Notes under the pieces: generated by a model | Told to the model about the DNA's origin: nothing | The model's database searches: none | Seen by the model: the letters and a program-made list of their open reading frames with translations, nothing else | In this document: positions 6,321 through 27,260 of the stretch, piece after piece | Position numbering within the stretch: the stretch's first letter is position 1 | Layout of the letters: every line of letters starts with the position of its first letter | Translations under genes and position numbers: made by a program | Virus record (IMG/VR): IMGVR_UViG_3300037805_000894 | Strand: one strand, 5' to 3' | Source of the DNA: a virus | DNA length: 64,000 bases

Positions 6321-6755
6321 ATGAGAATTAAAAACATAACTAAAACCAAGATTTTATTAAACTTATCTAGAAAAGTTTGGCTTCGTTCAGGAGCAGAATT
6401 AACTATTAATTCAGCTCAGCTTCGTCGCTGTAAAATGTACCAAGATAGAGGTCTTATTAAGATCTTAGGTGCAGAAGGTGCAAAACTAATAGCAGTTGAT
6501 AGTAAAGCTATTAAAGAGGAGGTCGTGGAAGTACCTATCATAGAAGAACCTGTAGTAGAGAGAGAAGTAATAGAGGCGCCTCCAGTAGAAGAAGCTATTG
6601 AGATTGAACCGGCACTAGAAGAGTCTGTTTCGGACGAAGGGAATGACTTAGGAGAGAAAAGCTATAAAGAATTAAAAGAGATAGCCACTGAACTAGGCGT
6701 AGCAGGTAAAGGCAAGAAAGGTTTAATCGAAGCAATTAAGAATTACGAAGAATAA
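6321..6755 (+). CDS. Head-associated protein with C-terminal Rho-N/HeH-like helical domain
   Basis: ATG at 6321 (track start 6276 lies inside the terminator). E/P/V-rich linker, then SYKELKEIATELGVAGKGKKGLIEAI. Confidence 0.6.
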   Translation: MRIKNITKTKILLNLSRKVWLRSGAELTINSAQLRRCKMYQDRGLIKILGAEGAKLIAVDSKAIKEEVVEVPIIEEPVVEREVIEAPPVEEAIEIEPALEESVSDEGNDLGEKSYKELKEIATELGVAGKGKKGLIEAIKNYEE

Positions 6756-9700
6756 TGAAACGAAGCGAATTTGTTCAATTCATGCGTCGTCATATGCAGG
6801 ATACTCCTGAAGCGAACGCCTTATTGTCGGGACATGAATTAACAGATGCTTCGATAGAAAGCTGTATAAGAATGGCAGAGATGGAGTATAATATGACTCC
6901 TCCTGTTATCACTGGCTTTACTATAGAAAATCATCCCGCAGTAGGTTTGTTAATCTATGGCACAATGATTGAAATGCTAATGTCAGCGGGTATCCTTAAT
7001 TCTAGGAATAGGTTAAATTATAATGCTGGCGGAGTTCAGGTAAACGTAAGTGATAAAGCTGGTGAATATAGTAATTGGATTAGTCTATTATTAAATAGGT
7101 ATAATCAATTAAAACTCCAACATAAGCAGGCTCTAAATATGAACAGAGCTTACGGTTCGGTAGGAAGCGAATATGGGAACGCCTTTAATTATGGTGATCT
7201 AACCACAGGCGTGGGTGTAGCACCTTGGCCAGGCGATAAACCAGGAAGCAGCGGAGGTACTGAACCAGCCCCAGAGGAGGGCGTAGAAACCTATCTACTA
7301 GCTAATGATACGTATGAGTGGTCTTTCTCAAAACAGCTAGGAGTAGACGGTGTAGGACCTTATTTACAGTTTGATCATGTTTTAAATAAAGAGACTGGTC
7401 ATAAAGTAGACATGTCAGCATCGCCCATATGGCAAATGGACTTAAAGTTGGATTTAACTGATAATGAAAATCCTACGACGTACGCCATACCTTTTTCTTT
7501 GCACGCTAGCGGTAATGGTGAATTAGTATATGCACCAGAGCCTCTAAAATTCACCGACGGACAAGATTACGTTTCTGTAGATAGTAGTGAACCAGGCAAG
7601 CTTGTTTTAAAATGGACCAAGTTTACATATGATTCTATAAAACAACCTAAGATATACGAAGGCGCTAAAGGTGGTTTATTTACGGTTGAGGTTTTGGTAG
7701 AATTAGAAAAAGGCGTATTGGAGATGTCAGTACGCACGGATATCACAGTGGACGAAGCGGGTTTGTCGTGTCCTACAGCATTACAAAGTATTAGATTCCC
7801 TTACCTAAGTATGCCTAACTTTAGTGGAAAGTCGCATGCCTATACTACCACTACTGGAGGAGAGCTTGTAATAGAGCCTGTAAGAGCTAATATTTTCGTA
7901 GGAGATACGGATATGAGTGATAGAACTGCTGGAGGCTCTGGTTTATATCCAGGAGATACAGCAACGACAATGCAGGCTTGGTTTGACGAGGATAATAAGT
8001 ACGGAGTGCTTGGTTATGACCTAGATCCGTACGATTCTGTTAGAAATATTATAAATACATCTGTTAAGGCAAACGATAATTGGTTTACTTATAATAGATT
8101 ATGGTGTCAATTGGAAGGGGATGATTTTAGACCTGTCCACAGAAGAAGAGGCGCGTACACTAGATCATGGAACACAGCTACTAATTTTTTCACTGATATA
8201 AATGGAAATCCTTACGGCTTTAAGCATAAATGTGTATTATTTGAAGGCGATGAAACGGAAGCGGCTTATATATTTAGAAAAGACTATATTGAAACCTTTA
8301 ATATTCCTACAGTATATGATAATCAAGATATTCCAGAGGACCATAAAGAGTCTCCTCTTTCTTTATGGTTAATAGATAATGCAATTGATAATAAAGCTGA
8401 AAACAGTACCCTGACGTACGGAACAGGCTGTGATATGTACGATGTTGTTTCCGGCTCAGTTAACTATTTTAGAGCTGAGTCTTTAGAGCTGCATGATCCT
8501 ATAGAGATAAATGTTTTATCTTTAACAACAAACGGCTGGATGACGCCGACCGCCGAGACCTATCCATGCGGAGCTTTTTTTGGCGCCAGTAACCAAGTTG
8601 GGTACCTTACAGAGGCAGAGAATATAGCTGAGGGCTACGAGAGACCTATGGTAGACAGAATGCGTAAAGGCATAGTACCTTTTCTACAGGGTCTTCACGA
8701 TGACGCCTCGTTAGGAGAGATTGCGGTGGCAGGCAACCAGGATACGGGACGTATTGTAGAGAATACTATATATAGCTCAACTAACTGGGGCGGCGCAGGC
8801 AACTCGCCTGTCCCCTTTCATTTTTCTGACGCCGCTAACGAGTACCCTAGACGTAATTTAAGCAGGATTAACGTTAATCATTCTATTTATGATTATAGCG
8901 GACTTGTCACTCATAAAAAAGACAATCAAAGCAGAGGATGTGCAGGATCTGCTTGGTTAGCTGATATGTATATTAGAGAAGCTAAAGTGATTATTGATGC
9001 TTTTGAAGGGACTGTAAATTATATTAAATTCACAGGTTCTTCTTCTCACCCAGTAAGGTGTATTGCTCCTTTATTAAAAGATACAGAGATAGGTACACCG
9101 AAAGTATGTGTAGGTGTTTTAAATAACGCGTCTATAGTAAAGAAGCAAACATCTTTATGGATAAATGATATAGAATTAAAAGCAGGTGTAGCCTGGGCTG
9201 CAGGGGCTACTGAACGAGCTACAGCGGAAAACATTAAAGAGGCTATAATAGAAGCAGGTTTCTATGCCTACACTGAAGATGTCCCCGCCATAGGCCAGAT
9301 TATTATTGAATTAGATTTGTATGACAAAGTAAAATTAACCTTACCTGCATTTACAGCAGATAGAACTTTACGCGCCCTGAATCTTAGTCACACGCCTTTA
9401 AAGGCTTTATATAATAGTAAATACCCTTCACAGAATATTTATTGCGAGAATGGGGTAGTCTTAACTTTCGACCACCCTATGTATGAAGCGCCGCCACTTG
9501 GTAGGCTTACCATTCATGGAGTAGAAAGCCCTCTACTTACACAGATAAATGCTCAACCAGATAAATGGAGAGAGTTTTCTTTCGGCTATGCCGATTTAGA
9601 ACCTTTAGACGAGACCATAACATGGCATACGGACAAGACAATAAATGCCAGTTCTTTTGTTAGTGCCATAAATACAGTAGATGCTGTATCCAGTACAGCA

Positions 9701-10984
9701 ATTATTGCTTCCGCAATCGATACTACTTCAGTAAAGCTACAATCTAATTTTCTTGCTCCTGATGGCTCTATCGAGAGGGGCTCAAAAACGCGCATATCTT
9801 TAAACGCTTTTTCAGACTATGTTTATGTAAGCGAGTTAGAGGCACTACCCGAAGGAAATATTGTAGCGGAAAATCATGTACACCCTACGGGATCTAGTTC
9901 ATATTTCCTAGAAAAAACAGGAGCGGCTATGAGGGAACTTCAAGCTTATGGTAAAAGTATAGCTAGCAATGGCTCTTTTTACTGCGGAACTGAGCGTAAT
10001 AATATGAAGGTGGGGCAATATGGGCAGGGAGAAAATGAACATCACAATATGCACCCTAATGCACTATTCCTACATAATTTTAGAATAGGCGCAGCGGAAA
10101 GTACTAAGCGAGAGAACTGGCTATCTCAGTATGTAATTCCTTACTCAACAAGAACTAATGTCTTACCGCATACACAGAAATCAGCTCCCCGAGCTTTCGG
10201 AACTATGGATACATGGTTTCGGGGAGCCTTAGTGAGGTTAGAGACAGAATTAGGTCAGCTGCCTCCTGAGCTGCAAAACGAAGACTCTATTGATAAGATG
10301 TCTCTCCAGTTCATGGCGTACGCGCAGCTATATTTTTTAATCTACGAAGCAGCTCCTCCGAGTGTCTTTCTATGCTGGGATGAGTATAATGATATATTAA
10401 GGGATAATACGATAACATATGAAGGACGCCTTATGGGAGACCCACGTTTTGACTCCTATCCGGGAAGCCCTTCGCTAGAGGCTAAAGGAGAACAGCTGCA
10501 GGCCTTTTTTAGAACACTAGTAGACATTTTCAAGGCCTACAGAAAAGAACTTCATACAAGCTTCACAATGAGCGGCAATCCTACTAAAGATTTCTGCACT
10601 TCCCCTAACGATTTTAACTACTGGTTTCAAGGACAAGACAATACTTATAGCCAGCGCTTAAGATCTTTGAGTGAATTAGGCCTTACTAATGTTATAGGCG
10701 CTTTTAGGAAGATAGAGGATGGCACCAATACTCTCACTGACAATGCAGGCTTGATCTTCGTAGGGAATTATTCTTTCGATGATAACCCAGAGGTAAATTT
10801 AAAGCTAGATTTAAAGCGATATTTACACATTACGGATGAAAACGCCTCCTTTAGTTTAACGGAGTATGATAAGGATAAAAATCAAATAGGTGAAAGTGAA
10901 ATTATCCAAGGGCTAGTTCCTTATATAAAGACTATATCAGTAGACTCCTTTGAGATAAGAATCTTTAAAGTACATAAAATTTAA
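6755..10984 (+). CDS. Head-tail adaptor-like domain fused to a ~1250-aa glycoside-hydrolase-like (DUF6259-like) region, paralog A
   Basis: N-terminal ~145 aa is helical with a beta-hairpin (RNRLNYNAGGVQVNVSDK) at the adaptor gene position, then a P/G linker. Body motifs SIRFP, YPG..TMQAWFD...G...DP, FEGD..EAA.IFR and HVHPTG recall DUF6259-type proteins. Confidence 0.55.
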   Translation: MKRSEFVQFMRRHMQDTPEANALLSGHELTDASIESCIRMAEMEYNMTPPVITGFTIENHPAVGLLIYGTMIEMLMSAGILNSRNRLNYNAGGVQVNVSDKAGEYSNWISLLLNRYNQLKLQHKQALNMNRAYGSVGSEYGNAFNYGDLTTGVGVAPWPGDKPGSSGGTEPAPEEGVETYLLANDTYEWSFSKQLGVDGVGPYLQFDHVLNKETGHKVDMSASPIWQMDLKLDLTDNENPTTYAIPFSLHASGNGELVYAPEPLKFTDGQDYVSVDSSEPGKLVLKWTKFTYDSIKQPKIYEGAKGGLFTVEVLVELEKGVLEMSVRTDITVDEAGLSCPTALQSIRFPYLSMPNFSGKSHAYTTTTGGELVIEPVRANIFVGDTDMSDRTAGGSGLYPGDTATTMQAWFDEDNKYGVLGYDLDPYDSVRNIINTSVKANDNWFTYNRLWCQLEGDDFRPVHRRRGAYTRSWNTATNFFTDINGNPYGFKHKCVLFEGDETEAAYIFRKDYIETFNIPTVYDNQDIPEDHKESPLSLWLIDNAIDNKAENSTLTYGTGCDMYDVVSGSVNYFRAESLELHDPIEINVLSLTTNGWMTPTAETYPCGAFFGASNQVGYLTEAENIAEGYERPMVDRMRKGIVPFLQGLHDDASLGEIAVAGNQDTGRIVENTIYSSTNWGGAGNSPVPFHFSDAANEYPRRNLSRINVNHSIYDYSGLVTHKKDNQSRGCAGSAWLADMYIREAKVIIDAFEGTVNYIKFTGSSSHPVRCIAPLLKDTEIGTPKVCVGVLNNASIVKKQTSLWINDIELKAGVAWAAGATERATAENIKEAIIEAGFYAYTEDVPAIGQIIIELDLYDKVKLTLPAFTADRTLRALNLSHTPLKALYNSKYPSQNIYCENGVVLTFDHPMYEAPPLGRLTIHGVESPLLTQINAQPDKWREFSFGYADLEPLDETITWHTDKTINASSFVSAINTVDAVSSTAIIASAIDTTSVKLQSNFLAPDGSIERGSKTRISLNAFSDYVYVSELEALPEGNIVAENHVHPTGSSSYFLEKTGAAMRELQAYGKSIASNGSFYCGTERNNMKVGQYGQGENEHHNMHPNALFLHNFRIGAAESTKRENWLSQYVIPYSTRTNVLPHTQKSAPRAFGTMDTWFRGALVRLETELGQLPPELQNEDSIDKMSLQFMAYAQLYFLIYEAAPPSVFLCWDEYNDILRDNTITYEGRLMGDPRFDSYPGSPSLEAKGEQLQAFFRTLVDIFKAYRKELHTSFTMSGNPTKDFCTSPNDFNYWFQGQDNTYSQRLRSLSELGLTNVIGAFRKIEDGTNTLTDNAGLIFVGNYSFDDNPEVNLKLDLKRYLHITDENASFSLTEYDKDKNQIGESEIIQGLVPYIKTISVDSFEIRIFKVHKI

Positions 10985-11031
10985 GTGTAGTTAGTTGTTA
11001 AAACATAATAAAAGAATACAATTAGTTTATT

Positions 11032-14000
11032 ATGGATAAGACAGCATGGCTAGCTTTAATAAACACGTATATAGATAATGATGCTATATTGAAGGACCTT
11101 TTACAGGATAAAAACCCAAGCGACGATGCTATTGATGTCTGTATAAAGAAAGCTAAGAAAGCTTATATAATTTTAAATCCTCTTGTTGCTGGTAATAGCG
11201 AGGAGAACGCTGGTACAGGTTTAATAATATACAGAGCCCTTATAGAACTTTTACAGGTTGAGTCTTTTATTGAAAAAGACGAAGAGGATAGATTCATTAC
11301 AAGCACCTCGTTAGAAGAGCGAGCAAGTGCAGGATGGGTTGATACTTTAATCTATCGTTACTATAAGATGCAAGAACAGCATAGTAGACAAATAAACATT
11401 GTGGCTACAACAGGTCGCGTTGGTAGTGAATATGGATCATATTTGGATTTTAATAATAAGGCAGGCTTTTCTAGAAGTGCTACCCATACAGCCGTATCAT
11501 TAGGCACTATACATAGCGGAGGGGTGGATAAAAGTACACATATCTACATACTGAGTAACTCTAAATTCAAGTGGGTTTTTTCAAAACAAGCCGCAGCTCA
11601 TGGAATAGGTCCTTATCTCCAATTTGATTATATACTAAATAAAGAGACCGGACATGAGATAGACATGTCAGCATCGCCCATATGGCAAATGGACTTAAAG
11701 TTAAATCTAGCTTTAACTGCTATGGCTACTAAGATAGCTATCCCTTATTCAACTTATGAGGATCATACAGGTATTCTTACAGAAGCAGCAGCTCCTTTAA
11801 AATTTACAGACGGACAAGATTACGTTTCTATAGATGATAGTCAAAACGATAAGCTTATTTTAAAATGGACGGATTTTACATACGCTTCTATAGCTGATGC
11901 GGTTAATGCATACGACACTAAACCACCTGGAGGCCTCTTTACGGTTGAAGTAACAGTTGAAATAAACGATGACGCTCTAGATATGTCGCTAAAGAGTGAG
12001 ATTAATGTAGATGGCAACAACAAGGATTGTTTTTCTACTTTACAGAGTATCAGGTTTCCTTACTTGCAGGTGCCAGAGCTAGGCCCTTCCCCCAGAGCAT
12101 ATACAGCCTTCGCTGGTGGTGAGATTCTCCTGGATCCTATAGGAAATTTTATGTATCTTACTGACCCAGAGAGTACGGGTAGAAATAAAGCTGGTTCCCA
12201 GTTCCCAGGGGATCAGGCTGTATCTTTACAGTCATGGTATGATGACACGAATAAATTTGGCATCATGTTATATAATTTAGATCCTAAACACGCTTTAAAA
12301 AGGATAATAAGTACTAATGTAAAAGACTCACCTAAATGGATTATGTATGAGCGTTCTTTTTGTAATCTAGATGAGGAGGATTTTAGGACTGGAAGAAGAC
12401 GCAATTTATATACTAAATCCTTCGATACCGCTGTAAATTTTTACACAGATAGCACTGGCGCTACTTATGGGTTTAAACATAAATTACAACTCTTTGAAGG
12501 AGATGAAGTAGAATCATGCCTAATATATAGAACTAAAATATATAATGCTCTTTCTTTAGTAACTCCTTATAGTAATCCAGCAACACCTGATGCGAGCAAG
12601 GAGATACCTTTATCTGTTTGGATCATAGACGACCCAACTGATAACACTGAGGCAAATGAGGTTCTCTATGCTTCTTCAGATACTTTATACACAGTTTTAA
12701 ATAATGTGATTAACTATTACAGAGGAGGTTCGTTAGAGCTAACAGATCCTATAGAAGTAGCTCCCTTAACGTGTGCAGTAAGTCCCTGGTCAGTACCCAC
12801 CAATGAGTCTCTGCCAGCGGTGGCTTTTGTTGGTGCGACGGGTCAAATAGGATATGCCACAGAAGCAGAAAACCTAGCTAATGGGATCCCAAACCCTTTA
12901 TTGGATAGAGTAAGGAAAGGCTTAGTGCAATTTTTAAAAGACATGCACGCTGATACTACGTTAGGTCATATACACATAGTAAGCAACCAAGATACGGGAC
13001 GTATTGTAGAAAACACTGTAGTAAGTAAGGACATACTTGGCGATTCCACTCACCCCGATCCGTATAGACCCGCAAGATGGTCTAACGAATATCCATTAAG
13101 AACTTTAGATAATTTATATGTATATGCGTCGATTTATGATAAGAATGGCACTTTAACAAAAAAAGGTAATTCTCAGAGTAGTGTGTGTCCAGGTTCTCTG
13201 TGGATAGATGAATATATTAGAGAAGCTAAAGTAATTATCGATGTTTTTGAAGGCACTATGAACTATATAAAATTAACAGGAGCTAGTTCAGCATTAATAG
13301 ACTGCTTTGCTCCTGCTATAGAAGGTGTTTTTGCTAATGTAAGTAAAGTTGTTCTAGGTGTATTACATAATTATTGTCTTAAAGATGCTTTGACTAGTCT
13401 TCAAATAAAAGATACAATCTTAACCGCTGGAACAGAATGGTTTATTGGAACGACTGAAGGTGAAACAGCAGAAAGTTTAAAAGAGGCTGTGCTAAATGCT
13501 GGATATTTTGCATTTATTGATACCGCAACTATAGATGTACCACAAGTTATAATAGAGTTAGAGTATGGGGATATAGTAAAATTGACACTTCCCCCTTTAA
13601 CAATATCCGAAAATTACAGAGGTTTATTATTAAGCAATCAGATAAGTGAAACCAGTTATGGTCTAAGCAGCGACTATTTAAAACAAGCTGTATATTGTGA
13701 AAAAAACGTAACACTTACTTTTGATCATCCAGATGATATTCCTAGTCCAAGAGGTACTATGACTATAAATGGTATCCAAAGCGCTAATACATCTATATCC
13801 GATATTAATAATCAACCAGATAAATGGAGACCCTATAAGTTTAGTTATAAAACTGTAGATGGGTCTACACTAATATGGCAGGACACAAAGGCTTTAAACG
13901 CCATGCAGCTGGCTAACGAGCTTAATACATTAGATGTAGTATCAAGTACAGCTATACAGGCTTCTGCTAGCGGTGAAAAAGTTTTATTACAATCTAATTT

Positions 14001-15204
14001 TATTGATAATGCAGAAATAGTACATGGTTCTAAAACACGCATAGATATAGAATGTTTTGAAGATCGTGCATATATCAGTGAATTAGAGGCTCTTCCAGAG
14101 AAGAGAAGACCGCACCCTGGTACACATACTCATCCTATTGGATCTAGCTCTTTCTCAGGTGAAGCTATAAAAGCAGCTCAGACAGAGATACAACTATATG
14201 GACAAGCAGCGGCCCTAAATGGCAGTTTTTATTCAGGAACTGAGCGCAATAATATGCTTACCTCTATTTTTGGTCAAGGAGAGAATGAGCATCATAATAT
14301 GTATCCTATAGTAGATGCCGTACACTTTATAAGGTCTTTAGAGACGGACAGAGCACACTGGATAAATACGCTAGTAGTTCCTTATTCTTCTCGTTGTAAC
14401 ATATTGGCTCATGTACAGAAGGGCGCTCCTAGATCCTATGGGACTTTTTATGCTAGGTTTCTTACCGCATTAGTTAAATACACGAATGAAGTAGGAGTAG
14501 CGAATTTACCAACAGAATTAACGGATGATGCGGCCATGAAACGCATGACAGTTACTTACATGACTTATGCGCAGCTGTTCTTCCTTACCTTTGATGCAGC
14601 ACCTCCCACAGTATATCATTGCGCTGATACACTTAATGATGCTATAAAAGGACGTATATATGAAGGAAGGCTAGACGGAGATCCCGAATACGACGCTTAT
14701 CCAGGTTCATTAGGACTACATGCTGATGCTATATCTTTCCAAGCTTTTATAAGATTACTAGCTGAATACTACAAAGCTTATAGAGAAGAATTGCAAACGA
14801 GTTTTGATATAGGAGGAAATCCTTTAAAAGGTTTTATAACCACCCCCTATGAGTTGATTCAGTGGTTTGCTGTTAGAGATAACCATTATGGGTTTAATTT
14901 AAAAAGCGCTTCTGCTTTTGGTTTATCTAATATTCTGGGTAGTTTCCGTTTAAATGACAATAAAGAAGGTTTAATTATAGTAGGAAATTACTCTTTTATT
15001 GATAATCCGGACGTTAATATTAACATTAATTTTAAGAAGCACATGCAAGAGGATGATATAACATCAGCTTTTACTATTACAGAATATGATAAAGAAAAAG
15101 TGCAGGTTGGGTTAGGGGAGATACAAGACTGGACAGAGGAATACACAAAAAATATCTCATTGGATGCTTTATCAATTCGTATTTTTAAAGTAGTTAAAAT
15201 ATGA
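11032..15204 (+). CDS. Paralog B of the adaptor/GH-like fusion protein
   Basis: Colinear with paralog A over its full length (GPYLQFD, DMSASPIWQMDLKL, NQDTGRIVEN, YIREAKVIID, GTERNNM, GQGENEHHNM). The N-terminal adaptor-like domain is more diverged. Confidence 0.6.
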   Translation: MDKTAWLALINTYIDNDAILKDLLQDKNPSDDAIDVCIKKAKKAYIILNPLVAGNSEENAGTGLIIYRALIELLQVESFIEKDEEDRFITSTSLEERASAGWVDTLIYRYYKMQEQHSRQINIVATTGRVGSEYGSYLDFNNKAGFSRSATHTAVSLGTIHSGGVDKSTHIYILSNSKFKWVFSKQAAAHGIGPYLQFDYILNKETGHEIDMSASPIWQMDLKLNLALTAMATKIAIPYSTYEDHTGILTEAAAPLKFTDGQDYVSIDDSQNDKLILKWTDFTYASIADAVNAYDTKPPGGLFTVEVTVEINDDALDMSLKSEINVDGNNKDCFSTLQSIRFPYLQVPELGPSPRAYTAFAGGEILLDPIGNFMYLTDPESTGRNKAGSQFPGDQAVSLQSWYDDTNKFGIMLYNLDPKHALKRIISTNVKDSPKWIMYERSFCNLDEEDFRTGRRRNLYTKSFDTAVNFYTDSTGATYGFKHKLQLFEGDEVESCLIYRTKIYNALSLVTPYSNPATPDASKEIPLSVWIIDDPTDNTEANEVLYASSDTLYTVLNNVINYYRGGSLELTDPIEVAPLTCAVSPWSVPTNESLPAVAFVGATGQIGYATEAENLANGIPNPLLDRVRKGLVQFLKDMHADTTLGHIHIVSNQDTGRIVENTVVSKDILGDSTHPDPYRPARWSNEYPLRTLDNLYVYASIYDKNGTLTKKGNSQSSVCPGSLWIDEYIREAKVIIDVFEGTMNYIKLTGASSALIDCFAPAIEGVFANVSKVVLGVLHNYCLKDALTSLQIKDTILTAGTEWFIGTTEGETAESLKEAVLNAGYFAFIDTATIDVPQVIIELEYGDIVKLTLPPLTISENYRGLLLSNQISETSYGLSSDYLKQAVYCEKNVTLTFDHPDDIPSPRGTMTINGIQSANTSISDINNQPDKWRPYKFSYKTVDGSTLIWQDTKALNAMQLANELNTLDVVSSTAIQASASGEKVLLQSNFIDNAEIVHGSKTRIDIECFEDRAYISELEALPEKRRPHPGTHTHPIGSSSFSGEAIKAAQTEIQLYGQAAALNGSFYSGTERNNMLTSIFGQGENEHHNMYPIVDAVHFIRSLETDRAHWINTLVVPYSSRCNILAHVQKGAPRSYGTFYARFLTALVKYTNEVGVANLPTELTDDAAMKRMTVTYMTYAQLFFLTFDAAPPTVYHCADTLNDAIKGRIYEGRLDGDPEYDAYPGSLGLHADAISFQAFIRLLAEYYKAYREELQTSFDIGGNPLKGFITTPYELIQWFAVRDNHYGFNLKSASAFGLSNILGSFRLNDNKEGLIIVGNYSFIDNPDVNININFKKHMQEDDITSAFTITEYDKEKVQVGLGEIQDWTEEYTKNISLDALSIRIFKVVKI

Positions 15205-22223: not shown

Positions 22224-22679
22224 TTAAAGTCGAGCAATTTTAAGTTGTTCGACTTTATCTTTTTTCATTTTATTTATAGCTATAAGCTCTGCTTGATTAA
22301 TAGTTGCCTCCATCCTTACCTGTAACCCTGTGACAATAAAATTAGCAAAGCGGTGAGGTTGTGTATTACTGGATAAAGAAAGTACGAATATAACATGCCC
22401 AGGAAACCATTTATCCAAATAATAGCTTTTTGCATCTTTTTCTATTAAGCTTTTAGTGTATGCTTCAGTGTCTATGATAAAATCAAAAAGAGGTTCTCTA
22501 GCTGGGGTAGCTCTTTTTAATCTTATACACAAAGACATGAATTCACCATAGTCGCAATAATTACAAAAAAAGTCATCCGTTTCAATTGATGACGTGTATA
22601 TATTAGGTGTAATATTTAAGTCCGGCTCTATACCCAGATCTAGTAAGTTAAACCCCGATGGGATCTCGTTCTCGTTCAT
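22224..22679 (-). CDS. Hypothetical protein, last gene of the Ubl/replication operon
   Basis: Overlaps the E1 3' end. Start placed at MNENE (22679) to reduce the overlap; has a CNYC motif. Confidence 0.45.
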   Translation of the reverse strand: MNENEIPSGFNLLDLGIEPDLNITPNIYTSSIETDDFFCNYCDYGEFMSLCIRLKRATPAREPLFDFIIDTEAYTKSLIEKDAKSYYLDKWFPGHVIFVLSLSSNTQPHRFANFIVTGLQVRMEATINQAELIAINKMKKDKVEQLKIARL

Positions 22680-23361
22680 ATGATGCATTAGCGCTTTGAC
22701 CAGTTTCAACCTGGAGCATAAAGTTCTGTGCATCTAGTACAACATTGAAAGGGTTCACGTTACCTACCAAGACATTTCGAACAGAGCTACAGACTAAACC
22801 AGCTGTGAGCAATATTGTATACGAAATAGCCTGTGCGGCACAAGAAGTTTTATGAGGTTTTACCTCTAAACTCTCTGCGTAAGAAGCTAAGCGGAAATCA
22901 CTTGTGACATCTACGTTGTACAGAGAGATCACATTACCGCCCATACGCGCATCAATGAGGTAACCAGCATTCACCATGAAACCGGACGTGAAGAGCTCCT
23001 TACGAGCTGCTAACGAGTCTGTAGCGAATATCACAAGACTATTCTTAGGTAAGATAGTTTGTGGAGTGGCTTTCTCTTTATTGATACTAATCTCAATCCC
23101 TTCAGGACTGAATTGCTTAGCTATGCGATAAGCCGCTTCGACTTTACTTTCACCAATATCTGTATTCATGTAGAATTGGTTAGGTATATTATGAGGCTCT
23201 ACATAGTCGTGATCAAACACTGTAATATCTGAAATGCCCATTTTTGCGAGGCCCATTAGTACGCCAGAGCCAATCCCTCCTACCCCTATAAGAACGACTG
23301 GTGTGTCCTTATAGAGAAAGGGGTTGAATAAGGCAGCTTGTCTTTTAAAGTCTCCTCTCAT
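22648..23361 (-). CDS. E1-like (ThiF/MoeB family) Ubl-activating enzyme
   Basis: N-terminal RQ arginine finger, VVLIGVGGIGS nucleotide loop, DHDYVEPHNIPNQ, SKVEA, ATDS, IDARMG, and candidate catalytic Cys174 (KTSCAAQ). Confidence 0.9.
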   Translation of the reverse strand: MRGDFKRQAALFNPFLYKDTPVVLIGVGGIGSGVLMGLAKMGISDITVFDHDYVEPHNIPNQFYMNTDIGESKVEAAYRIAKQFSPEGIEISINKEKATPQTILPKNSLVIFATDSLAARKELFTSGFMVNAGYLIDARMGGNVISLYNVDVTSDFRLASYAESLEVKPHKTSCAAQAISYTILLTAGLVCSSVRNVLVGNVNPFNVVLDAQNFMLQVETGQSANASYERERDPIGV

Positions 23362-24443
23362 GGTTTTACGCAGTATGTACTGCCAGCGTTAAGGTTGTAG
23401 CGATTCTTCATTAAGTTTAATATGTTTACAGCTGTGTCACTTTTCAACACCTTTGCTGGATCATGGGAGTTTACAGCAGCCGTAGAGCCGAACATCTTTA
23501 CTACACTAACAAGTTCCCAGATAATGGTAGGCTTAAGTTTTTCAAGAGTTGATACCTTAAGAAGTGCAGTAAACAAGTTCATAAGCTCTTTATGCCTATC
23601 TTTTAGTTCATTATTTTCATAATTTAGTGCGAAGATTAGAAATGCTATGTCTTTAATAGCTTTAGGTTTGCTATGCGCTGTCAGAAGTATCCGACACATA
23701 TCTTTCAATTCTGGATGAGCTTTTATTACAAGGTTGGGCAGTCCATAAGCCTTTACAGTGCCTATTGCTCCCTTAGTAGACGTGCTTCCATAATAAGAAC
23801 CTTGGCCTCCATAATAAGAAGAACCTACCCCTCCAAAATAGGGAGTCCCAGTTTTTTGATATGAAACCTTCTTTGTTTGCACTTTCTCATCAACATCTTT
23901 TTGAAGGTCCTCGAAAGACGCTTTGTAGTCTATCTTAACTACAACATTATCAATTGTCATCCTATAGGGCTTAAAGAAATCTACCCTACCTAAAATATCA
24001 TTTCCTCGATTAAGCACTAAACTCACTAAGTAATGACTATTAGCTAATCCATTAATACCACCCTCATCCGTGGAAGACCAGAAGGTTTTCATAGTATGGT
24101 GTGAGTGGCAGAAAGCCCTCATCTTAGGCATGATATCCATTAAGGCTTCTTCCTTCCCATGCTTTTCAATAAGCTCTGGCAATAAATTAGAAACCATTTC
24201 TGCATCAGCCTCGACTGATGAGGCGGTCACTTCTTGCTCCGGAACGTATATTTCCGTGATATTGAAGACATTACCTGTCTTCTCTACTGTGCCAAACCAC
24301 GCCACCTCAGCGTCTACGTTATCAACAAGGAACCGCATGCGTTGGTATACATATGCACTTAATACAATGGAGAGTTCAGCTCCTTTTCCAGAGAACCTCA
24401 TTGAGGTCTCTTTCTCCGCTTCTTTTGTTAGTTCTTTTGTCAT
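23358..24443 (-). CDS. JAB/JAMM (MPN+) metallopeptidase with C-terminal extension
   Basis: E46 plus H113-S-H115-x7-S123-x2-D126 (CHSHHTMKTFWSSTD), an exact JAMM motif. Confidence 0.9.
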   Translation of the reverse strand: MTKELTKEAEKETSMRFSGKGAELSIVLSAYVYQRMRFLVDNVDAEVAWFGTVEKTGNVFNITEIYVPEQEVTASSVEADAEMVSNLLPELIEKHGKEEALMDIMPKMRAFCHSHHTMKTFWSSTDEGGINGLANSHYLVSLVLNRGNDILGRVDFFKPYRMTIDNVVVKIDYKASFEDLQKDVDEKVQTKKVSYQKTGTPYFGGVGSSYYGGQGSYYGSTSTKGAIGTVKAYGLPNLVIKAHPELKDMCRILLTAHSKPKAIKDIAFLIFALNYENNELKDRHKELMNLFTALLKVSTLEKLKPTIIWELVSVVKMFGSTAAVNSHDPAKVLKSDTAVNILNLMKNRYNLNAGSTYCVKP

Positions 24444-24454
24444 TTTGTTCCTGT

Positions 24455-24491
24455 AAAAAGAAAGAGAGAGATATATTAATATCTCTCTCTT
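24455..24491 (-). terminator. Terminator-like hairpin between the Ubl and JAB genes
   Basis: 13-bp perfect stem AAGAGAGAGATAT/ATATCTCTCTCTT (24462-24491) followed on the - strand by TCTTTTT. Confidence 0.65.
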
Positions 24492-24503
24492 ACATTAAAT
24501 GGA

Positions 24504-24713
24504 TTATAGGCCAGCTTCTACGTTAGGAATAAGCTGAACCTGATCCCCAGGCTGCATCACATAGTCGTTATCTACACGACTATTGTTTACCTTTACGGTA
24601 ACGCTCTTACTTACATTCCGAGTGCTAATTAAAGCACCTAGAGTTAATTGCTCTTGAAAGGGGACAGTATCAGTGCCCTCTCCCATTTCAACTACGAAAA
24701 TTGGGTCAGTCAT
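24504..24713 (-). CDS. Ubiquitin-like (ThiS/MoaD beta-grasp) modifier, C-terminus ...VEAG-L
   Basis: 69 aa. VKVNN...DYVMQPGDQVQLIPNVEAGL matches the ThiS/MoaD/Urm1 C-terminal pattern. Flanked by E2, JAB and E1 genes. Confidence 0.88.
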   Translation of the reverse strand: MTDPIFVVEMGEGTDTVPFQEQLTLGALISTRNVSKSVTVKVNNSRVDNDYVMQPGDQVQLIPNVEAGL

Positions 24714-24717
24714 TTTT

Positions 24718-26403
24718 TTATGGGTTTTCCCCTAGAATCGGGGTGGTTACTAGTAGATCTACCAGAGTTCTAGTTTCAGGGAGAATTTCTTTTTCATCTT
24801 CAACCTCTTCTGGTTCTACTATCTTATACCCTAGATCGGCGCAAGTTTTAGCTAAGTCTATAGCTATTTTTTCCTCGCCACTTACTAGTAAGTCCTTATG
24901 TATTTTCTCCATATCAAGATTGCTTCCTCTTTCCAATAGACACTCCAAAAACGCTTTATTGGAAAGGCCTATTTTTGTATTTCCACTTATATATGCTATA
25001 AAATTCTTCTCGCTAATGTTTGTACTGAAGAGTAAAAGATTTGCAATATTTATAAAGACAGAAAAAGGGTTTATATTCTCTAGTAACATACCTACCAAAG
25101 CAGGCACAGAGTGGAAGTTGCCCCTTAAAATTTCTTTCTTAATTAAAGCTTCATACTCACCTAAACAGAGTATCCCGGTGGTTGCTACATGCGGATGCAA
25201 ATACATCTCGGAGTCAAAGCTATTTATGGTTACACTGCCTTTTTCAAGATAAGCAGCAATTACACTATCCTTATGGGAAGGCTGTGGGGACAAGCGTAAA
25301 GAGATTTGTAAGTCTTCTGCGTCGCTCGCCTGCAAGCGGACATGCAAGAGAAAATCTCCTACAAGAATACCATTATCATATGTCACCGTATTGTTAGAGT
25401 AAATATGTATATCCGGCATACTGAAAAGTAATGTAATTGACATATTTCCAGTTTTTACTGTGTTAATAAAATCAAGTAATTCTTGCTTAGGCCCATTAAA
25501 CCCACATGCTAGAGTAGGAGCAGTAATAGTGACCGGTGAATAGAGACAGTGCTTAGAAGTAGTGGGAGTATTAATAACCCCTATTTGGTTACGTCTGATT
25601 ATAATATCCTCTAAAGGATATTGTAGGGTATTAAGTCTCTCTACCTTAGCGCGAGTACTTAAGCGCTCAAGTAACCTCTCCATCAGAGAAGAGGAGTTAT
25701 CAGAAAGAAGCTTAAGCATATGAGGGAGAGTATAGTGAGTAGGCGCTGGCTGCATAGTAGAGACGTTTTCCATTATGTCTTCTATTTTAGCAGAGAAATC
25801 GCCTCCTTTCCTACACGCATCTTGAAGATGTTTCTCTAACGGTACATCTTCTAGACTCGCAATTTCGTCTTCTTCTATCTTGAAATAGAATTTATCCCCC
25901 ACTCGATGCAAGAAGTCTAGAATATTAAATGCATGTCCCTCACGCGCTCCAAACTGGAAGGAGGGCTGAAATCGAAAGGAGGCGCCGCTTGGACTTATCT
26001 TATATATAATACGAAGTAAGCTACAATTTCTTCGTATATAGTATGAGTAAGGATTTATTATTAAGTAATTATGTCCCTGTAGAGAGTTTATTGACGCTTG
26101 CTGACACCATGCTGTAAAAGCTGAATGAGAAAAATGGAAGGAGTCGCCTTCTATCAGCTCTGTTTTATTTATGTGGCTCAAATAAAAAGGTCTGTCTTTA
26201 TTCTCTAAGCTAACTGACACAGGTGTGTCAATATTCCTAGCAAGGCTTATGCGCTTAGTGGTAAGTTGTCCTGCTCTAGACATAAACTCAATACCTGCAG
26301 CTCTAGAGAGTAAGGTAGTAAGAGCATTTAAGTCTACGTTGTGCTTATCTATAAAGAGCCTGCTTTTATCGAGGAGCTCACTGGAAGGTTTTTTTCTCAT
26401 CAT
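24718..26403 (-). CDS. Protein with C-terminal prokaryotic E2 (UBC-like) domain and long N-terminal extension
   Basis: H403-PHVATTGIL-C413-LG has the same spacing as the canonical E2 HPNIxxxGxICL motif, followed by a helix and LLENINPFS. Adjacent to the Ubl gene. Confidence 0.75.
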   Translation of the reverse strand: MMRKKPSSELLDKSRLFIDKHNVDLNALTTLLSRAAGIEFMSRAGQLTTKRISLARNIDTPVSVSLENKDRPFYLSHINKTELIEGDSFHFSHSAFTAWCQQASINSLQGHNYLIINPYSYYIRRNCSLLRIIYKISPSGASFRFQPSFQFGAREGHAFNILDFLHRVGDKFYFKIEEDEIASLEDVPLEKHLQDACRKGGDFSAKIEDIMENVSTMQPAPTHYTLPHMLKLLSDNSSSLMERLLERLSTRAKVERLNTLQYPLEDIIIRRNQIGVINTPTTSKHCLYSPVTITAPTLACGFNGPKQELLDFINTVKTGNMSITLLFSMPDIHIYSNNTVTYDNGILVGDFLLHVRLQASDAEDLQISLRLSPQPSHKDSVIAAYLEKGSVTINSFDSEMYLHPHVATTGILCLGEYEALIKKEILRGNFHSVPALVGMLLENINPFSVFINIANLLLFSTNISEKNFIAYISGNTKIGLSNKAFLECLLERGSNLDMEKIHKDLLVSGEEKIAIDLAKTCADLGYKIVEPEEVEDEKEILPETRTLVDLLVTTPILGENP

Positions 26404-27260
26404 TTTAATTTCATTCCTAATTCTAGTTCACACTGAGTAACGTATTGACAACTATTACCACATTGCCATGTGTTAAAGTTATGGTTAAACAGTGAAGGGT
26501 CTTTTATGGCCATTGTTAAGTATTTAACAGCCCAGTCTAATTTACGAGCCATGAATTTATGCTGATCATCAGTGATGAAATCAGTAAACTGAGCTATCTC
26601 TGGGTCATCTCTTTTTTTCAAGAGACATACATCATATCGTGTTTCTCGGATTTCTTGTCCTTGCAGACTCATCATGTAAGAATAAACTACAAGTTGCCAA
26701 AGTTTCTCTGTACCACTCCAACGCCTCCATGTAGTTTTATTATCTACAATAACTTGACTGCCGTCTTTATTTTCCAGTAGGTCAATGTAACCTTTAAACT
26801 TAAGCCCAGGTGTAAACTCATGATATATTTCAATCTGGGTTCCTTCTGGTTCGACTTTAGTTAATATTTTATCTCTGAATATTTTTAAGCCTTTAGTGCA
26901 GGCAGTTAAGACCTTTCCTTGTTGCGCTTTAATGTCTTGCCCAGGAATCCAAGAGGCCTCATCCTTGCGATGTTCGAACTCTTCCTTTACATGATCTTGT
27001 AATACATCTAAAGGTTCATCTTTTCCAGTTGCTTTTTTCTGGTCATAATGGAAGTTAAGCGTTTCATCAAAAGCTGAACCTGTAATCATCTTCCAGTTGG
27101 GTGAAGACTTAATGCCTTTAATATAGCGATAGTAAAAAGCTTTGGGACACCTTTCTAATAAGCCAATAGAGGAATAAGAGAGATGCTCTATAGGAAAAGA
27201 AACGCCCTTCTCCGAAGAAAAGGGCGTCTCGTTATTAGCGGACTGATCGTTAAATTTCAT
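26400..27260 (-). CDS. PD-(D/E)XK exonuclease (Cas4/RecB/AddB-like, putative Fe-S cluster)
   Basis: HLSYSS...RCP, GYIDLL, IVDNKT, WQLVVY and C-terminal C-x3-C-x5-C. Confidence 0.85.
   Translation of the reverse strand: MKFNDQSANNETPFSSEKGVSFPIEHLSYSSIGLLERCPKAFYYRYIKGIKSSPNWKMITGSAFDETLNFHYDQKKATGKDEPLDVLQDHVKEEFEHRKDEASWIPGQDIKAQQGKVLTACTKGLKIFRDKILTKVEPEGTQIEIYHEFTPGLKFKGYIDLLENKDGSQVIVDNKTTWRRWSGTEKLWQLVVYSYMMSLQGQEIRETRYDVCLLKKRDDPEIAQFTDFITDDQHKFMARKLDWAVKYLTMAIKDPSLFNHNFNTWQCGNSCQYVTQCELELGMKLK

Follow-up and report, generated by a model that had tools for sequence, protein, structure and literature searches.

A predicted ubiquitin-like tagging cassette encoded within the DNA-replication operon of an uncultured marine tailed phage

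Ubiquitin-like (Ubl) tagging machinery composed of an activating enzyme (E1), a transfer enzyme (E2), a JAB/JAMM peptidase and a Ubl has so far been characterised only in cells, mostly as anti-phage defence. The closest described systems are the bacterial ISG15-like Bil systems (BilABCD, types I and II; Chambers et al., PMC10557695; Hor et al., 10.1101/2023.09.04.556158), in which the four parts are separate proteins, the Ubl is made with a C-terminal extension that is removed by the DUB to expose a Gly, and no E3 is present, the E2 being proposed to pick the target. A small single-domain Ubl with a conserved C-terminal Gly, a JAB, a small E1-like protein, an E2-like protein and an extra, rapidly diverging protein are found in operon class 6d of Iyer, Burroughs and Aravind 2006 (PMC1779556), or PRTRC cassette, borne by plasmids and ICEs. 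Bub (6E/DUF6527) operons (Ye et al., PMC11601596) represent a diverged bacterial Ubl conjugation pathway in which a peptidase generates the functional Ubl, while type II CBASS employs Cap2 (an E2-E1 fusion) and Cap3 (a JAB). A ThiS/MoaD-like protein with a C-terminal cap, a JAMM peptidase and a MoeB-like E1 also make up sulfur-carrier triads, such as CysO/Mec/MoeZ and QbsE/QbsD/QbsC, which do not perform conjugation. In phages, the only Ubl and JAB pair in the literature we examined is formed by the lambda/T1 tail assembly proteins TAPI (Ubl) and TAPK (JAB + NlpC/P60) (PMC1779556).

Here we analysed a window of 64,000 nucleotides from IMG/VR virus record IMGVR_UViG_3300037805_000894, for which a complete phage-encoded Ubl conjugation system had originally been predicted from sequence alone. 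The observation was confirmed: four co-oriented genes are present on the minus strand (26403..22648), encoding a 561-aa E2-like protein (26403..24718), a 69-aa Ubl (24713..24504), a 361-aa JAB (24443..23358) and a 237-aa E1 (23361..22648). The predicted gene overlaps are present as well, since the stop of the upstream PD-(D/E)XK nuclease gene and the E2 start share ATGA, as do the JAB stop and the E1 start, and the genes are translationally coupled. Host DNA misassembled into the contig had been named in advance as an outcome that would overturn the prediction, but the record is a 156-kb phage genome and the cassette, together with a fifth conserved gene, is found at the same place, after primase-helicase and the PD-(D/E)XK nuclease, in independently assembled relatives (Tara/ENA, JGI and Logan assemblies), so that it is neither host DNA nor a misassembly. 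The absence of rhodanese and of thiamine, Moco or tRNA-thiolation genes, originally noted for the window, was extended to the whole 156-kb record, in which no rhodanese, PP-loop ATPase, MoaE or ThiG, and no sulfur-acceptor enzyme, is present. Two corrections are required, concerning the Arg of the E1 and the extent of the locus, to which the fifth gene and a conserved hairpin also belong (see below).

The E2-like protein (24718..26403) gave no Pfam, PHROG, PADLOC, NCBIfam or PDB sequence match and no E2 HMM match, and only seven relatives were retrieved among 1.8 billion representatives, all in the same phage synteny where checked. Lack of a UBC fold had been put forward beforehand as grounds for rejection; in this respect, an AlphaFold2 model of the C-terminal domain, based on an alignment of only seven sequences, was confident (pLDDT 80.1, pTM 0.76) and showed a UBC/E2-like core (residues about 306-461; 25021..25488) consisting of an N-terminal helix, a beta-meander, the active-site loop and then helices. 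When this model was compared with 48,161 PDB representatives using VIA-align, the top 9 rows were all E2 enzymes (Z 5.0-5.6, 80-111 residues aligned), and a second examination of the Foldseek list gave E2s in the top 47 rows (Z up to 5.8). These scores are modest, as Z values under 8 can reflect a common arrangement, and the best PDB hit of Foldseek, UBE2A, was not significant (E = 0.11). The active-site motif HPHVATTGILCLG (H403-G415; 25159..25197) contains the candidate catalytic Cys413 (codon at 25165-25167), and H403, P404, H405, V406, G410, C413 and G415 (HPHV-x3-G-x2-C) are invariant in eight sequences sharing only 21-36% identity. The His-to-Cys distance of 10 residues equals that of the HPN...C motif of canonical, UbcH5-type E2s. 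The N-terminal half (residues 1-315; 25459..26403) has no recognisable fold and evolves fast, with a mean pairwise identity of 16-19% compared to 28-42% in the C-terminal domain; it could not be aligned by BLASTP with the homologue of a relative designated L002, the single-sequence model was unusable, and its proposed role as target-recognition module is inferred.

The 69-aa Ubl (24504..24713) is a ThiS-like beta-grasp protein. All eight members of its family matched Pfam ThiS (best 1.5e-6), although the window's own copy scores below the Pfam cut-off, and several also matched TGS, Ub-Mut7C and SAMP2. Its tail reads NVEAGL-stop, and PNVEAG is invariant in the family, whereas the cap following the Gly (Gly68, 24510-24512; here Leu69) varies (L, Q, IN, TN and N), which is the signature of a processed Ubl precursor. 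In the 60-nt spacer between the Ubl and JAB genes a terminator scan identified a 13-bp hairpin followed by a U-rich run (24462..24491), with a folding energy of -19.8 kcal/mol (z = -4.2). L002 carries a hairpin plus U run of unrelated sequence in the same spacer (z = -2.8). This element is a candidate attenuating terminator that would make more E2 and Ubl message than JAB and E1 message, although this function is inferred.

The JAB/JAMM metallopeptidase (23358..24443) comprises a catalytic domain (residues about 23-185; 23889-24377), a Gly/Tyr-rich linker and a variable C-terminal helical domain (23361-23738). It carries E46 and HSHHTMKTFWSSTD (H113, H115, S123, D126), and E46, H113, S114, H115, S123 and D126 are invariant in eleven sequences. 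Eight of these eleven hit Pfam Prok-JAB, but weakly (best 0.0018, all below cut-off), and the best PDB hit of the family profile was the Rpn11-like JAMM protein 6fjv (E 0.15), aligned on E, HSH and S..D. The catalytic domain is 54% conserved, compared to 26% for the C-terminal part.

The E1 (22648..23361) is a minimal ThiF/MoeB-type protein with a single adenylation domain (Pfam ThiF 2.2e-22, 79.8 bits against a cut-off of 28.1), whose best PDB match is MoeB, followed by NEDD8, UBA5 and Ub E1s. It shows GVGGIG (26-31) and KTSCAAQ, with the candidate catalytic Cys174 encoded at 22840-22842. Among five phage ThiFs sharing 21-66% identity, G26, G28, G31, D50, N58, Q62, K73, D115, R120, D137, R139 and C174, including the ATP-site residues, are invariant. 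The motifs of the E2-like, JAB and E1 proteins are thus more than chance, each being invariant in its family although overall identity is low. The original prediction also listed an Arg finger; however, the canonical Arg of the NxxRQ motif, present in MoeB and UBA3, is Asn61 here (NIPNQ), and the residue meant can only be the N-terminal R7, which could not be verified by alignment.

Compared to Bil, the E1 is a 237-aa single ThiF domain, the Ubl is a single 68-residue ThiS-like beta-grasp ending in Ala-Gly rather than ISG15-like, the E2 carries a 300-residue N-terminal extension and a helical C-terminal extension, and the owner is a lytic-type phage genome instead of a bacterial defence island. 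The class 6d E2 lacks the upstream His of classical E2s and has a downstream His instead, while the phage protein keeps His-Pro-His upstream of the Cys; moreover, the phage E1 scores only 49 bits against a cut-off of 144.75 for PRTRC_ThiF, the other parts match no PRTRC model, and there is no ParB. Bub uses fusions (Ubl-E2 and JAB-E1, or E2-E1) and a DUF6527 protein, neither of which is present here. In type II CBASS, E1 and E2 are fused and there is no Ubl, the substrate being the CD-NTase C-terminus; the Rossmann part of the phage E1 matches the PADLOC Cap2 models (4.8e-12), but no other PADLOC model matched, these matched the E1 only, and neither cyclase nor effector is present. The E1s of the sulfur-carrier triads carry or recruit a rhodanese and feed a sulfur-acceptor enzyme, and these triads have no E2-like partner. 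TAPI/TAPK lack E1 and E2, are located in the tail module and are thought to involve processing only.

The interpretation of the locus as an E2-like/Ubl/JAB/E1 set owned by the virus is supported for all four genes, and we consider it fairly likely that it represents a virus-owned Ubl protein-conjugation cascade transcribed with the replication genes of the phage. In this view, the JAMM peptidase removes the one-residue cap and exposes Gly68, the E1, probably a homodimer, adenylates Gly68 and takes it as a thioester on Cys174, and the tag moves to Cys413 of the UBC-like domain and then to a lysine of a target chosen by the fast-evolving N-terminal half of the same protein, without a separate E3, as proposed for Bil E2s. 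The JAB can probably also reverse the mark, and the hairpin would keep the tag in excess over the enzymes. While gene composition, invariant motifs, synteny and phage ownership result from our analysis, these steps are inferred: the first from the invariant Gly plus variable tail and the precedent of BilC and BilA (DUB pre-processing has been shown for Bil; PMC10557695), the second from family chemistry, and the third from the fold and the invariant HPH-x7-C motif; no chemistry was tested, and neither conjugation nor its targets have been demonstrated. Against this reading, the E1 has Asn61 where active E1s have the Arg of NxxRQ, and it also has no ubiquitin-fold or separate Cys domain for recruiting an E2, so that E1-to-E2 transfer would have to be non-canonical. 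Conversely, conserved catalytic cores next to fast-evolving accessory domains are as expected for a specificity module. The most likely role is the tagging of host or phage proteins in early to middle infection, for takeover, counter-defence or control of replication. Of the roles originally suggested (tagging host defence or replication proteins, jamming or reversing host Ubl defence, sabotaging co-infecting phages, or modifying the phage's own proteins), all are still options, none having been singled out by the present data.

Among the alternatives, two appear unlikely to a similar degree. The first is a sulfur-carrier pathway, as in CysO/Mec/MoeZ, QbsCDE or TtuB/TtuC, in which the trimmed and adenylated Ubl would be converted to a thiocarboxylate donating sulfur to a cofactor, a nucleoside or a DNA or tRNA modification, and the 561-aa protein would not be a transfer enzyme. 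In line with this, the Ubl matches ThiS/MoaD families best, its relatives have been named "sulfur carrier protein ThiS", the closest solved relative of the E1 is MoeB, and JAB-trimmed sulfur carriers exist (Iyer 2006, PMC1779556). However, the E1 has no rhodanese domain, no PP-loop thiolase or other partner listed above occurs in the 156-kb record, the C-terminus is Ala-Gly and not Gly-Gly, the setting is a replication operon, and a translationally linked protein with a UBC-like fold and an invariant HPH...C is left unexplained. The second is counter-defence by interference with Bil, Bub or type II CBASS Cap2/Cap3, in which the JAB would strip host conjugates, or the phage Ubl and E2 would act as decoys, without writing marks of their own. 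Host Ubl systems target phage proteins (PMC11601596), the JAB and E2-like proteins evolve much faster (37% and 32% identity) than their neighbours (58-78%), as arms-race genes do, and the E1 matches the CBASS E1-E2 models. On the other hand, a deconjugase alone would suffice for reversal, yet E1, the pro-Ubl with its invariant Gly and the E2 cysteine motif are all kept under purifying selection across the clade, and the cassette is a fixed part of the core replication operon, not a variable accessory island.

Slightly less likely is a phage-carried exclusion system with the same conjugation chemistry, tagging structural proteins of co-infecting phages. Bil tags phage tail proteins (PMC11601596), the variable N-terminal half of the E2 protein could follow competitor proteins, and the cassette abuts the structural module, but there is no direct evidence and deep conservation at one fixed position in the replication operon of a whole clade is unlike known phage-borne defence cargo, and analogous sets sit beside the primase in crAss001 and FpV4. 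Finally, a non-catalytic 561-aa protein, with a UEV/RWD-type binding module or an unrelated fold and an E1 ligating the Ubl directly or doing other adenylation chemistry (MccB/PaaA-like), is very unlikely, since, despite the modest Z scores, the lack of an HMM hit, the UEV/Tsg101 folds at ranks 33, 37 and 41 of the structural list and the E2-independent Ubl attachment of archaeal SAMP systems, inactive UEV/RWD domains lack the cysteine, whereas His-Pro-His and Cys are invariant at E2 spacing in every homologue and the region around them is the best conserved part of the protein (42%).

A survey of other phages, proposed together with the original prediction, showed that analogous sets are widespread; we found no paper describing them. 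They occur beside the primase of the cultured crAss001 (Gp79-Gp76) and Flavobacterium phage FpV4 (gp53-gp50), of Dulem virus 41 and of gut phage MT835544. Each has a JAB with the JAMM motif next to a small ThiF that also lacks the NxxRQ Arg, preceded by a large unknown protein and a beta-grasp-like protein. Their JABs are only distantly related to the present one (hhalign E 2e-6 for Dulem), their large proteins show no significant similarity to the E2-like family, and their Ubl-like domain carries a long C-terminal extension. In crAss001, the two recognisable genes are annotated only as "metalloprotease domain" and "thiamine biosynthesis protein ThiF".

The fifth conserved gene of the cluster (22224..22733, minus strand) encodes a 169-aa ORF, for which the likely start near Met16-19 gives about 151 aa. 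Its function is unknown, and searches for protein families and in the Atlas gave no lead. It contains a conserved C57-x2-C60...C69, is present downstream of the E1 in all relatives examined, and is 57% identical to the L002 copy.

The window is part of a 156,428-base virus record that is estimated to be 93% complete and that contains a head protease, a major head protein, a baseplate wedge protein, helicases, ribonucleotide reductase and a family A DNA polymerase, and it therefore belongs to a tailed phage. On the minus strand one run of genes extends from about 33780 down to 22224 and comprises, in order, a helicase, a primase-DnaB fusion (PriCT_1 + DnaB_C), two small proteins, a PD-(D/E)XK nuclease, the E2-like, Ubl, JAB and E1 genes and a fifth small gene, and it ends 15 bases from the end of the convergent structural module. 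The stop codon of the nuclease overlaps the start of the 561-aa E2-like gene (ATGA), and the JAB stop overlaps the E1 start in the same way. A strong GC-rich 14-bp hairpin with a U run (27199-27230, minus strand) lies about 30 nt inside the 5' end of the nuclease ORF, just after the small SSB-like gene (for which there is a DUF669 hint); this may be an internal attenuator, or the nuclease start may be mis-set. The homologue of the nuclease in the related locus L002 was called from the equivalent of residue 58. The structural region also holds a 3135-aa ORF (49511-58918) and two tandem ORFs of about 1400 aa (6755-15204), all on the plus strand, which were not examined. The observation made in the original prediction, that an E2-like protein, a Ubl, a JAB and an E1 are encoded together in this phage, is confirmed.

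The E1 (237 aa; 22648-23361, minus strand) is a clear member of the ThiF/MoeB/E1 adenylating enzymes (PF00899), scoring 79.8 bits against a curated cut-off of 28.1 (E 2.2e-22) over residues 19-207. Its nearest solved relatives are MoeB, followed by the NEDD8, UBA5, ubiquitin and SUMO E1s, and MccB. The nucleotide-binding loop GVGGIG (G26/G28/G31), the ribose-binding D50, K73, and the Mg-binding D115 with R120 of the DxxxxR motif align with their MoeB counterparts, which are G39/G41/G44, D62, K86, D130 and R135, and they are invariant in five very different phage ThiFs. In contrast, the Arg of the N-x-x-R-Q motif, which contacts phosphate, is absent: the window has N-I-P-N61-Q. All phage ThiFs compared here (this clade, the gut phage, Dulem virus 41, crAss001 and the Xanthomonas jumbo phage) have Asn or Gly at this position, with NMSGQ in crAss001 Gp76, suggesting a distinct phage E1 clade with altered phosphate binding. 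Cys174 is likewise invariant in the five phage ThiFs. However, the HMMER alignments reached only residue 144, so that its equivalence to the cysteine after the crossover loop that can take the acyl group (ThiF C184/MoeB C187) rests on pattern comparison alone and is left undecided. The protein is a bare adenylation domain, with no rhodanese, no zinc CxxC pairs visible in the sequence, no ubiquitin-fold domain and no separate Cys domain.

The window copy of the Ubl (69 aa) falls just under the ThiS cut-off (20.6 bits against 22.5), although all eight family members match ThiS (best E 1.5e-6) and several match other beta-grasp families. The alignment of this family is the most telling result of the analysis, as PNVEAG is invariant, including G68, while what follows the Gly is L, Q, IN or TN, or N in a more distant relative. 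An invariant Gly followed by a short, variable tail is how processed Ubl precursors look, and BilC does exactly this trimming for BilA (PMC10557695). The JAB (361 aa) is not named above threshold by any library: it scores 12.4 bits against a cut-off of 25 for Prok-JAB (PF14464), with weak matches in eight of eleven relatives (best E 0.0018). The E...H-x-H-x7-S-x2-D zinc and catalytic motif of JAB/JAMM (MPN+) metallopeptidases is nevertheless complete, E46, H113, S114, H115, S123 and D126 being invariant in eleven sequences, and the best solved hit of the family profile is an archaeal Rpn11-like JAMM protein (6fjv; E 0.15) aligned on exactly those residues. The catalytic domain is 54% conserved, while the Gly/Tyr-rich linker and the C-terminal helical domain are conserved at only about 26%.

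The 60-nt spacer between the Ubl and JAB genes holds a 13-bp hairpin followed by a U run (z = -4.2), and L002 has a hairpin of unrelated sequence plus a U run at the same place (z = -2.8). It can only be inferred that a partial terminator at this point would give more E2 and Ubl message than JAB and E1 message, which would suit a stoichiometric tag and catalytic enzymes.

The E2-like protein (561 aa) is not matched by anything at the sequence level. Searches with the protein or its family in Pfam, PHROGs, PADLOC, NCBIfam and the PDB gave nothing, none of the eight family members matched a Pfam profile (UQ_con and Prok-E2_A to E included) at E <= 1, and a word-based homologue search found only the protein itself; the only indication was an Atlas lead to a cluster in which 15% of members carry Prok-E2_D. 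Megablast of 12 kb and tblastn of the E2-like protein against 50,697 phage records gave no match, and only seven relatives exist among 1.8 billion representatives. The alignment of these eight sequences, the window's included, shows an invariant H403-P-H-V-x3-G-x2-C413-x-G, and H403-P-H-V-x3-G-x2-C413 is also found in the locus L007. The spacing between His and Cys is that of the HPN...C motif of canonical E2s, with Asn replaced by His.

The fold of the 561-aa protein was modelled. A single-sequence AlphaFold2 model of the full length was unusable (pLDDT 37), but a model of residues 290-537 built on the family alignment was confident (pLDDT 80, pTM 0.76), its elements being one helix, a beta-meander, a long loop holding the motif, and then helices, as in the UBC fold. 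When it was compared with 48,161 PDB representatives without any Foldseek pre-filter, the nine best rows were all E2 enzymes (Z 5.0-5.6, rmsd 2.8-5.6 A, 80-111 residues aligned), and so were most of the top fifty; in a second comparison restricted to the Foldseek candidates the first 47 rows were all E2s (Z up to 5.8, about 100-110 residues aligned). Foldseek itself gave no significant hit against the PDB, ranking UBE2A first at an E of 0.11. These Z values are below the level at which the method advises trust on score alone, so this is a fold assignment and not proof, and what carries it is the uniformity of the hits together with the invariant motif in the right loop. The N-terminal 315 residues are barely conserved (16-19% identity) and could not be assigned; this half, the JAB and the E1 were not modelled, nor was any complex of the proteins. 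BFVD holds structurally similar uncharacterised proteins of 370-590 aa from uncultured marine viruses and crAss-like viruses (E down to 5e-4).

The cassette is the phage's own. The same order (helicase, primase-helicase, two small genes, nuclease, E2-like, Ubl, JAB, ThiF, small gene, then the convergent structural genes) occurs in several independent assemblies: ENA contigs of 43, 75 and 148 kb, two Logan contigs, a JGI contig of 7.9 kb, a JGI contig of 137 kb whose E2-like protein is only 21% identical to that of the window, and a Tara scaffold. Between the window and L002 the flanking genes are 58-78% identical, the E1 67%, the Ubl 55% and the fifth gene 57%, while the JAB is only 37% identical and the E2-like protein 32% over its C-terminal domain alone. 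The cassette is thus old in this lineage and kept by selection, with two fast-evolving members. The fifth gene (22224-22733, minus strand; about 151-169 aa) always follows the E1 in relatives, has a conserved C57-x2-C60...C69 and no detectable family, the Atlas search giving no lead either, and could be a partner, an adaptor or a substrate of the cassette.

The best-supported reading of these data is a conjugation cascade, and the interpretation given in the original prediction is supported. The analysis itself establishes the domain identities, the conserved catalytic residues, the pro-form signature of the Ubl, and the linkage and conservation of the genes, whereas every chemical step is inferred, neither conjugation nor its target having been demonstrated, and so is the role of the N-terminal half of the E2-like protein as the targeting module, which follows the proposal that Bil E2s recognise targets directly (PMC11601596). 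The main rival is a sulfur-carrier pathway of the ThiS/MoaD type. It is weakened by the absence from the whole 156-kb record of rhodanese, ThiG, MoaE and TtuA/Ncs6-type PP-loop ATPases (PF00581, PF05690, PF02391 and PF01171), profiles that did give matches in the control genomes, by the Ubl ending in Ala-Gly plus a cap and not in Gly-Gly, and by the presence of a cysteine-bearing UBC-like partner. Host enzymes could still supply the sulfur chemistry, so this rival is not excluded. That the cassette might be host DNA or a misassembly, which had been put forward in advance as a way for the prediction to fail, is rejected on its synteny in independent assemblies.

As to the biological aim, the sequence alone does not discriminate between host takeover, counter-defence, exclusion of other phages and control of the phage's own proteins, but a fixed place in the replication operon, and the same placement of analogous sets in unrelated phages, argue for an early, core function rather than accessory cargo. 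A possible, though tentative, extension is that a whole clade of marine tailed phages, and by analogy crAss-like and other phages, runs its own complete ubiquitin-like "writer and eraser" system as a core early function, using an E2 with a built-in, rapidly evolving targeting domain to mark host proteins such as defence or replication factors. This would make protein tagging by Ubl a viral takeover weapon in prokaryotes and not only a host defence. Ubl conjugation in bacteria has been shown to work as anti-phage defence (Bil, type II CBASS), and a complete cascade fixed in the replication operon of a phage lineage turns this picture round and asks what a virus of bacteria tags, and why. As the parts are minimal (a 68-residue tag, a 237-aa E1 without the usual Arg or any E2-recruiting domain, and an E2 fused to its own putative targeting domain), they could also show how little is needed for transfer from E1 to E2 to target.

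Compared with described systems, the protein families and their owner are new, while the chemistry is familiar. The cassette works like Bil and like the class 6d/PRTRC operons, but is a member of neither. As in Bil (BilABCD), the Ubl, E2, JAB and E1 are separate co-oriented genes and the Ubl carries the signature of a pro-form, although its processing was not assayed; the E1, with its 237 aa and one ThiF domain, is not of the Bil type described in PMC11601596. The E2 keeps the upstream His that class 6d lacks. The PRTRC ThiF model (TIGR03736) is missed by a wide margin (49.3 bits against a cut-off of 144.75), and no other PRTRC model (the PRTRC cassette comprising ParB and PRTRC proteins A-F) was hit by the other four proteins. 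No PADLOC model but CBASS Cap2 touches any part. In the literature examined, which was incomplete and hence no proof of absence, no paper describes a phage-borne E1-E2-Ubl-JAB cassette, a search on crAss-like phages and ThiF returned no paper, and the 2021 jumbo-phage survey does not mention JAB, ThiF or Ubl. The only phage-borne Ubl-JAB pair found there is the lambda/T1 tail-assembly pair, which has no E1 or E2 (PMC1779556).

A survey of phage genomes had been suggested with the prediction, and searching phage records with the E1 and JAB of the window led to four other settings, while two scans of IMG/VR with the E1 found nothing. First, a gut phage contig (MT835544.1) has a 78-aa protein, a 491-aa protein, a JAB and a ThiF in a row. 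The 445-aa ORF right after this ThiF (6676-8013 of L004, the locus taken from this contig) contains an R-Y-A-D-D motif typical of reverse transcriptases. Second, Dulem virus 41 (L006, 1149-4579) has, after the primase, a 227-aa protein whose first roughly 90 residues look beta-grasp-like and end in Ser-Gly, then a 373-aa protein with an HSHC...G...CCLG motif, a JAB (Prok-JAB 5e-5; hhalign to the window family E 2e-6) and a ThiF. Third, the Dulem JAB has homologues in 52 phage records, including cultured crAss001, DAC15, the PhiCrAssBcn phages and Flavobacterium phages FpV3 and FpV4. In crAss001 (NC_049977.1; L010, 1441-5851) the set is Gp79-Gp76, beside the primase and the uracil-DNA glycosylase, and is annotated only as a metalloprotease domain protein and a ThiF thiamine biosynthesis protein; FpV4 (L011, 1332-5343) is alike. 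In crAss001, FpV4 and Dulem virus 41 the four genes beside the primase encode a protein whose N-terminal roughly 90 residues look beta-grasp-like and end in K-S-G, S-S-G or S-G-G, followed by a long extension, a 370-440-aa unknown protein, a JAMM peptidase and a ThiF, of which public annotation names only the last two. We could not show that the large proteins of these other sets are E2s, as hhalign of the E2-like profile against those of Dulem virus 41 and MT835544 was not significant. As analogous gene sets sit beside the primase of cultured phages (crAss001, DAC15, FpV4), the general question is open to genetics even though the present phage is uncultured. Finally, in cultured jumbo phages of Xanthomonas and Erwinia a ThiF of the same Arg-less type lies directly downstream of an 892-aa protein with Cys-rich ends (1193-4567 of L005, the locus from Xanthomonas phage PhiXhv-12, PV764601.1), with no JAB or obvious Ubl beside it. 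This protein contains IHPHM...GSLCLGSF, like the active site of the window's E2, but the match is at the level of the motif only (hhalign E 7e-4, probability 26%).
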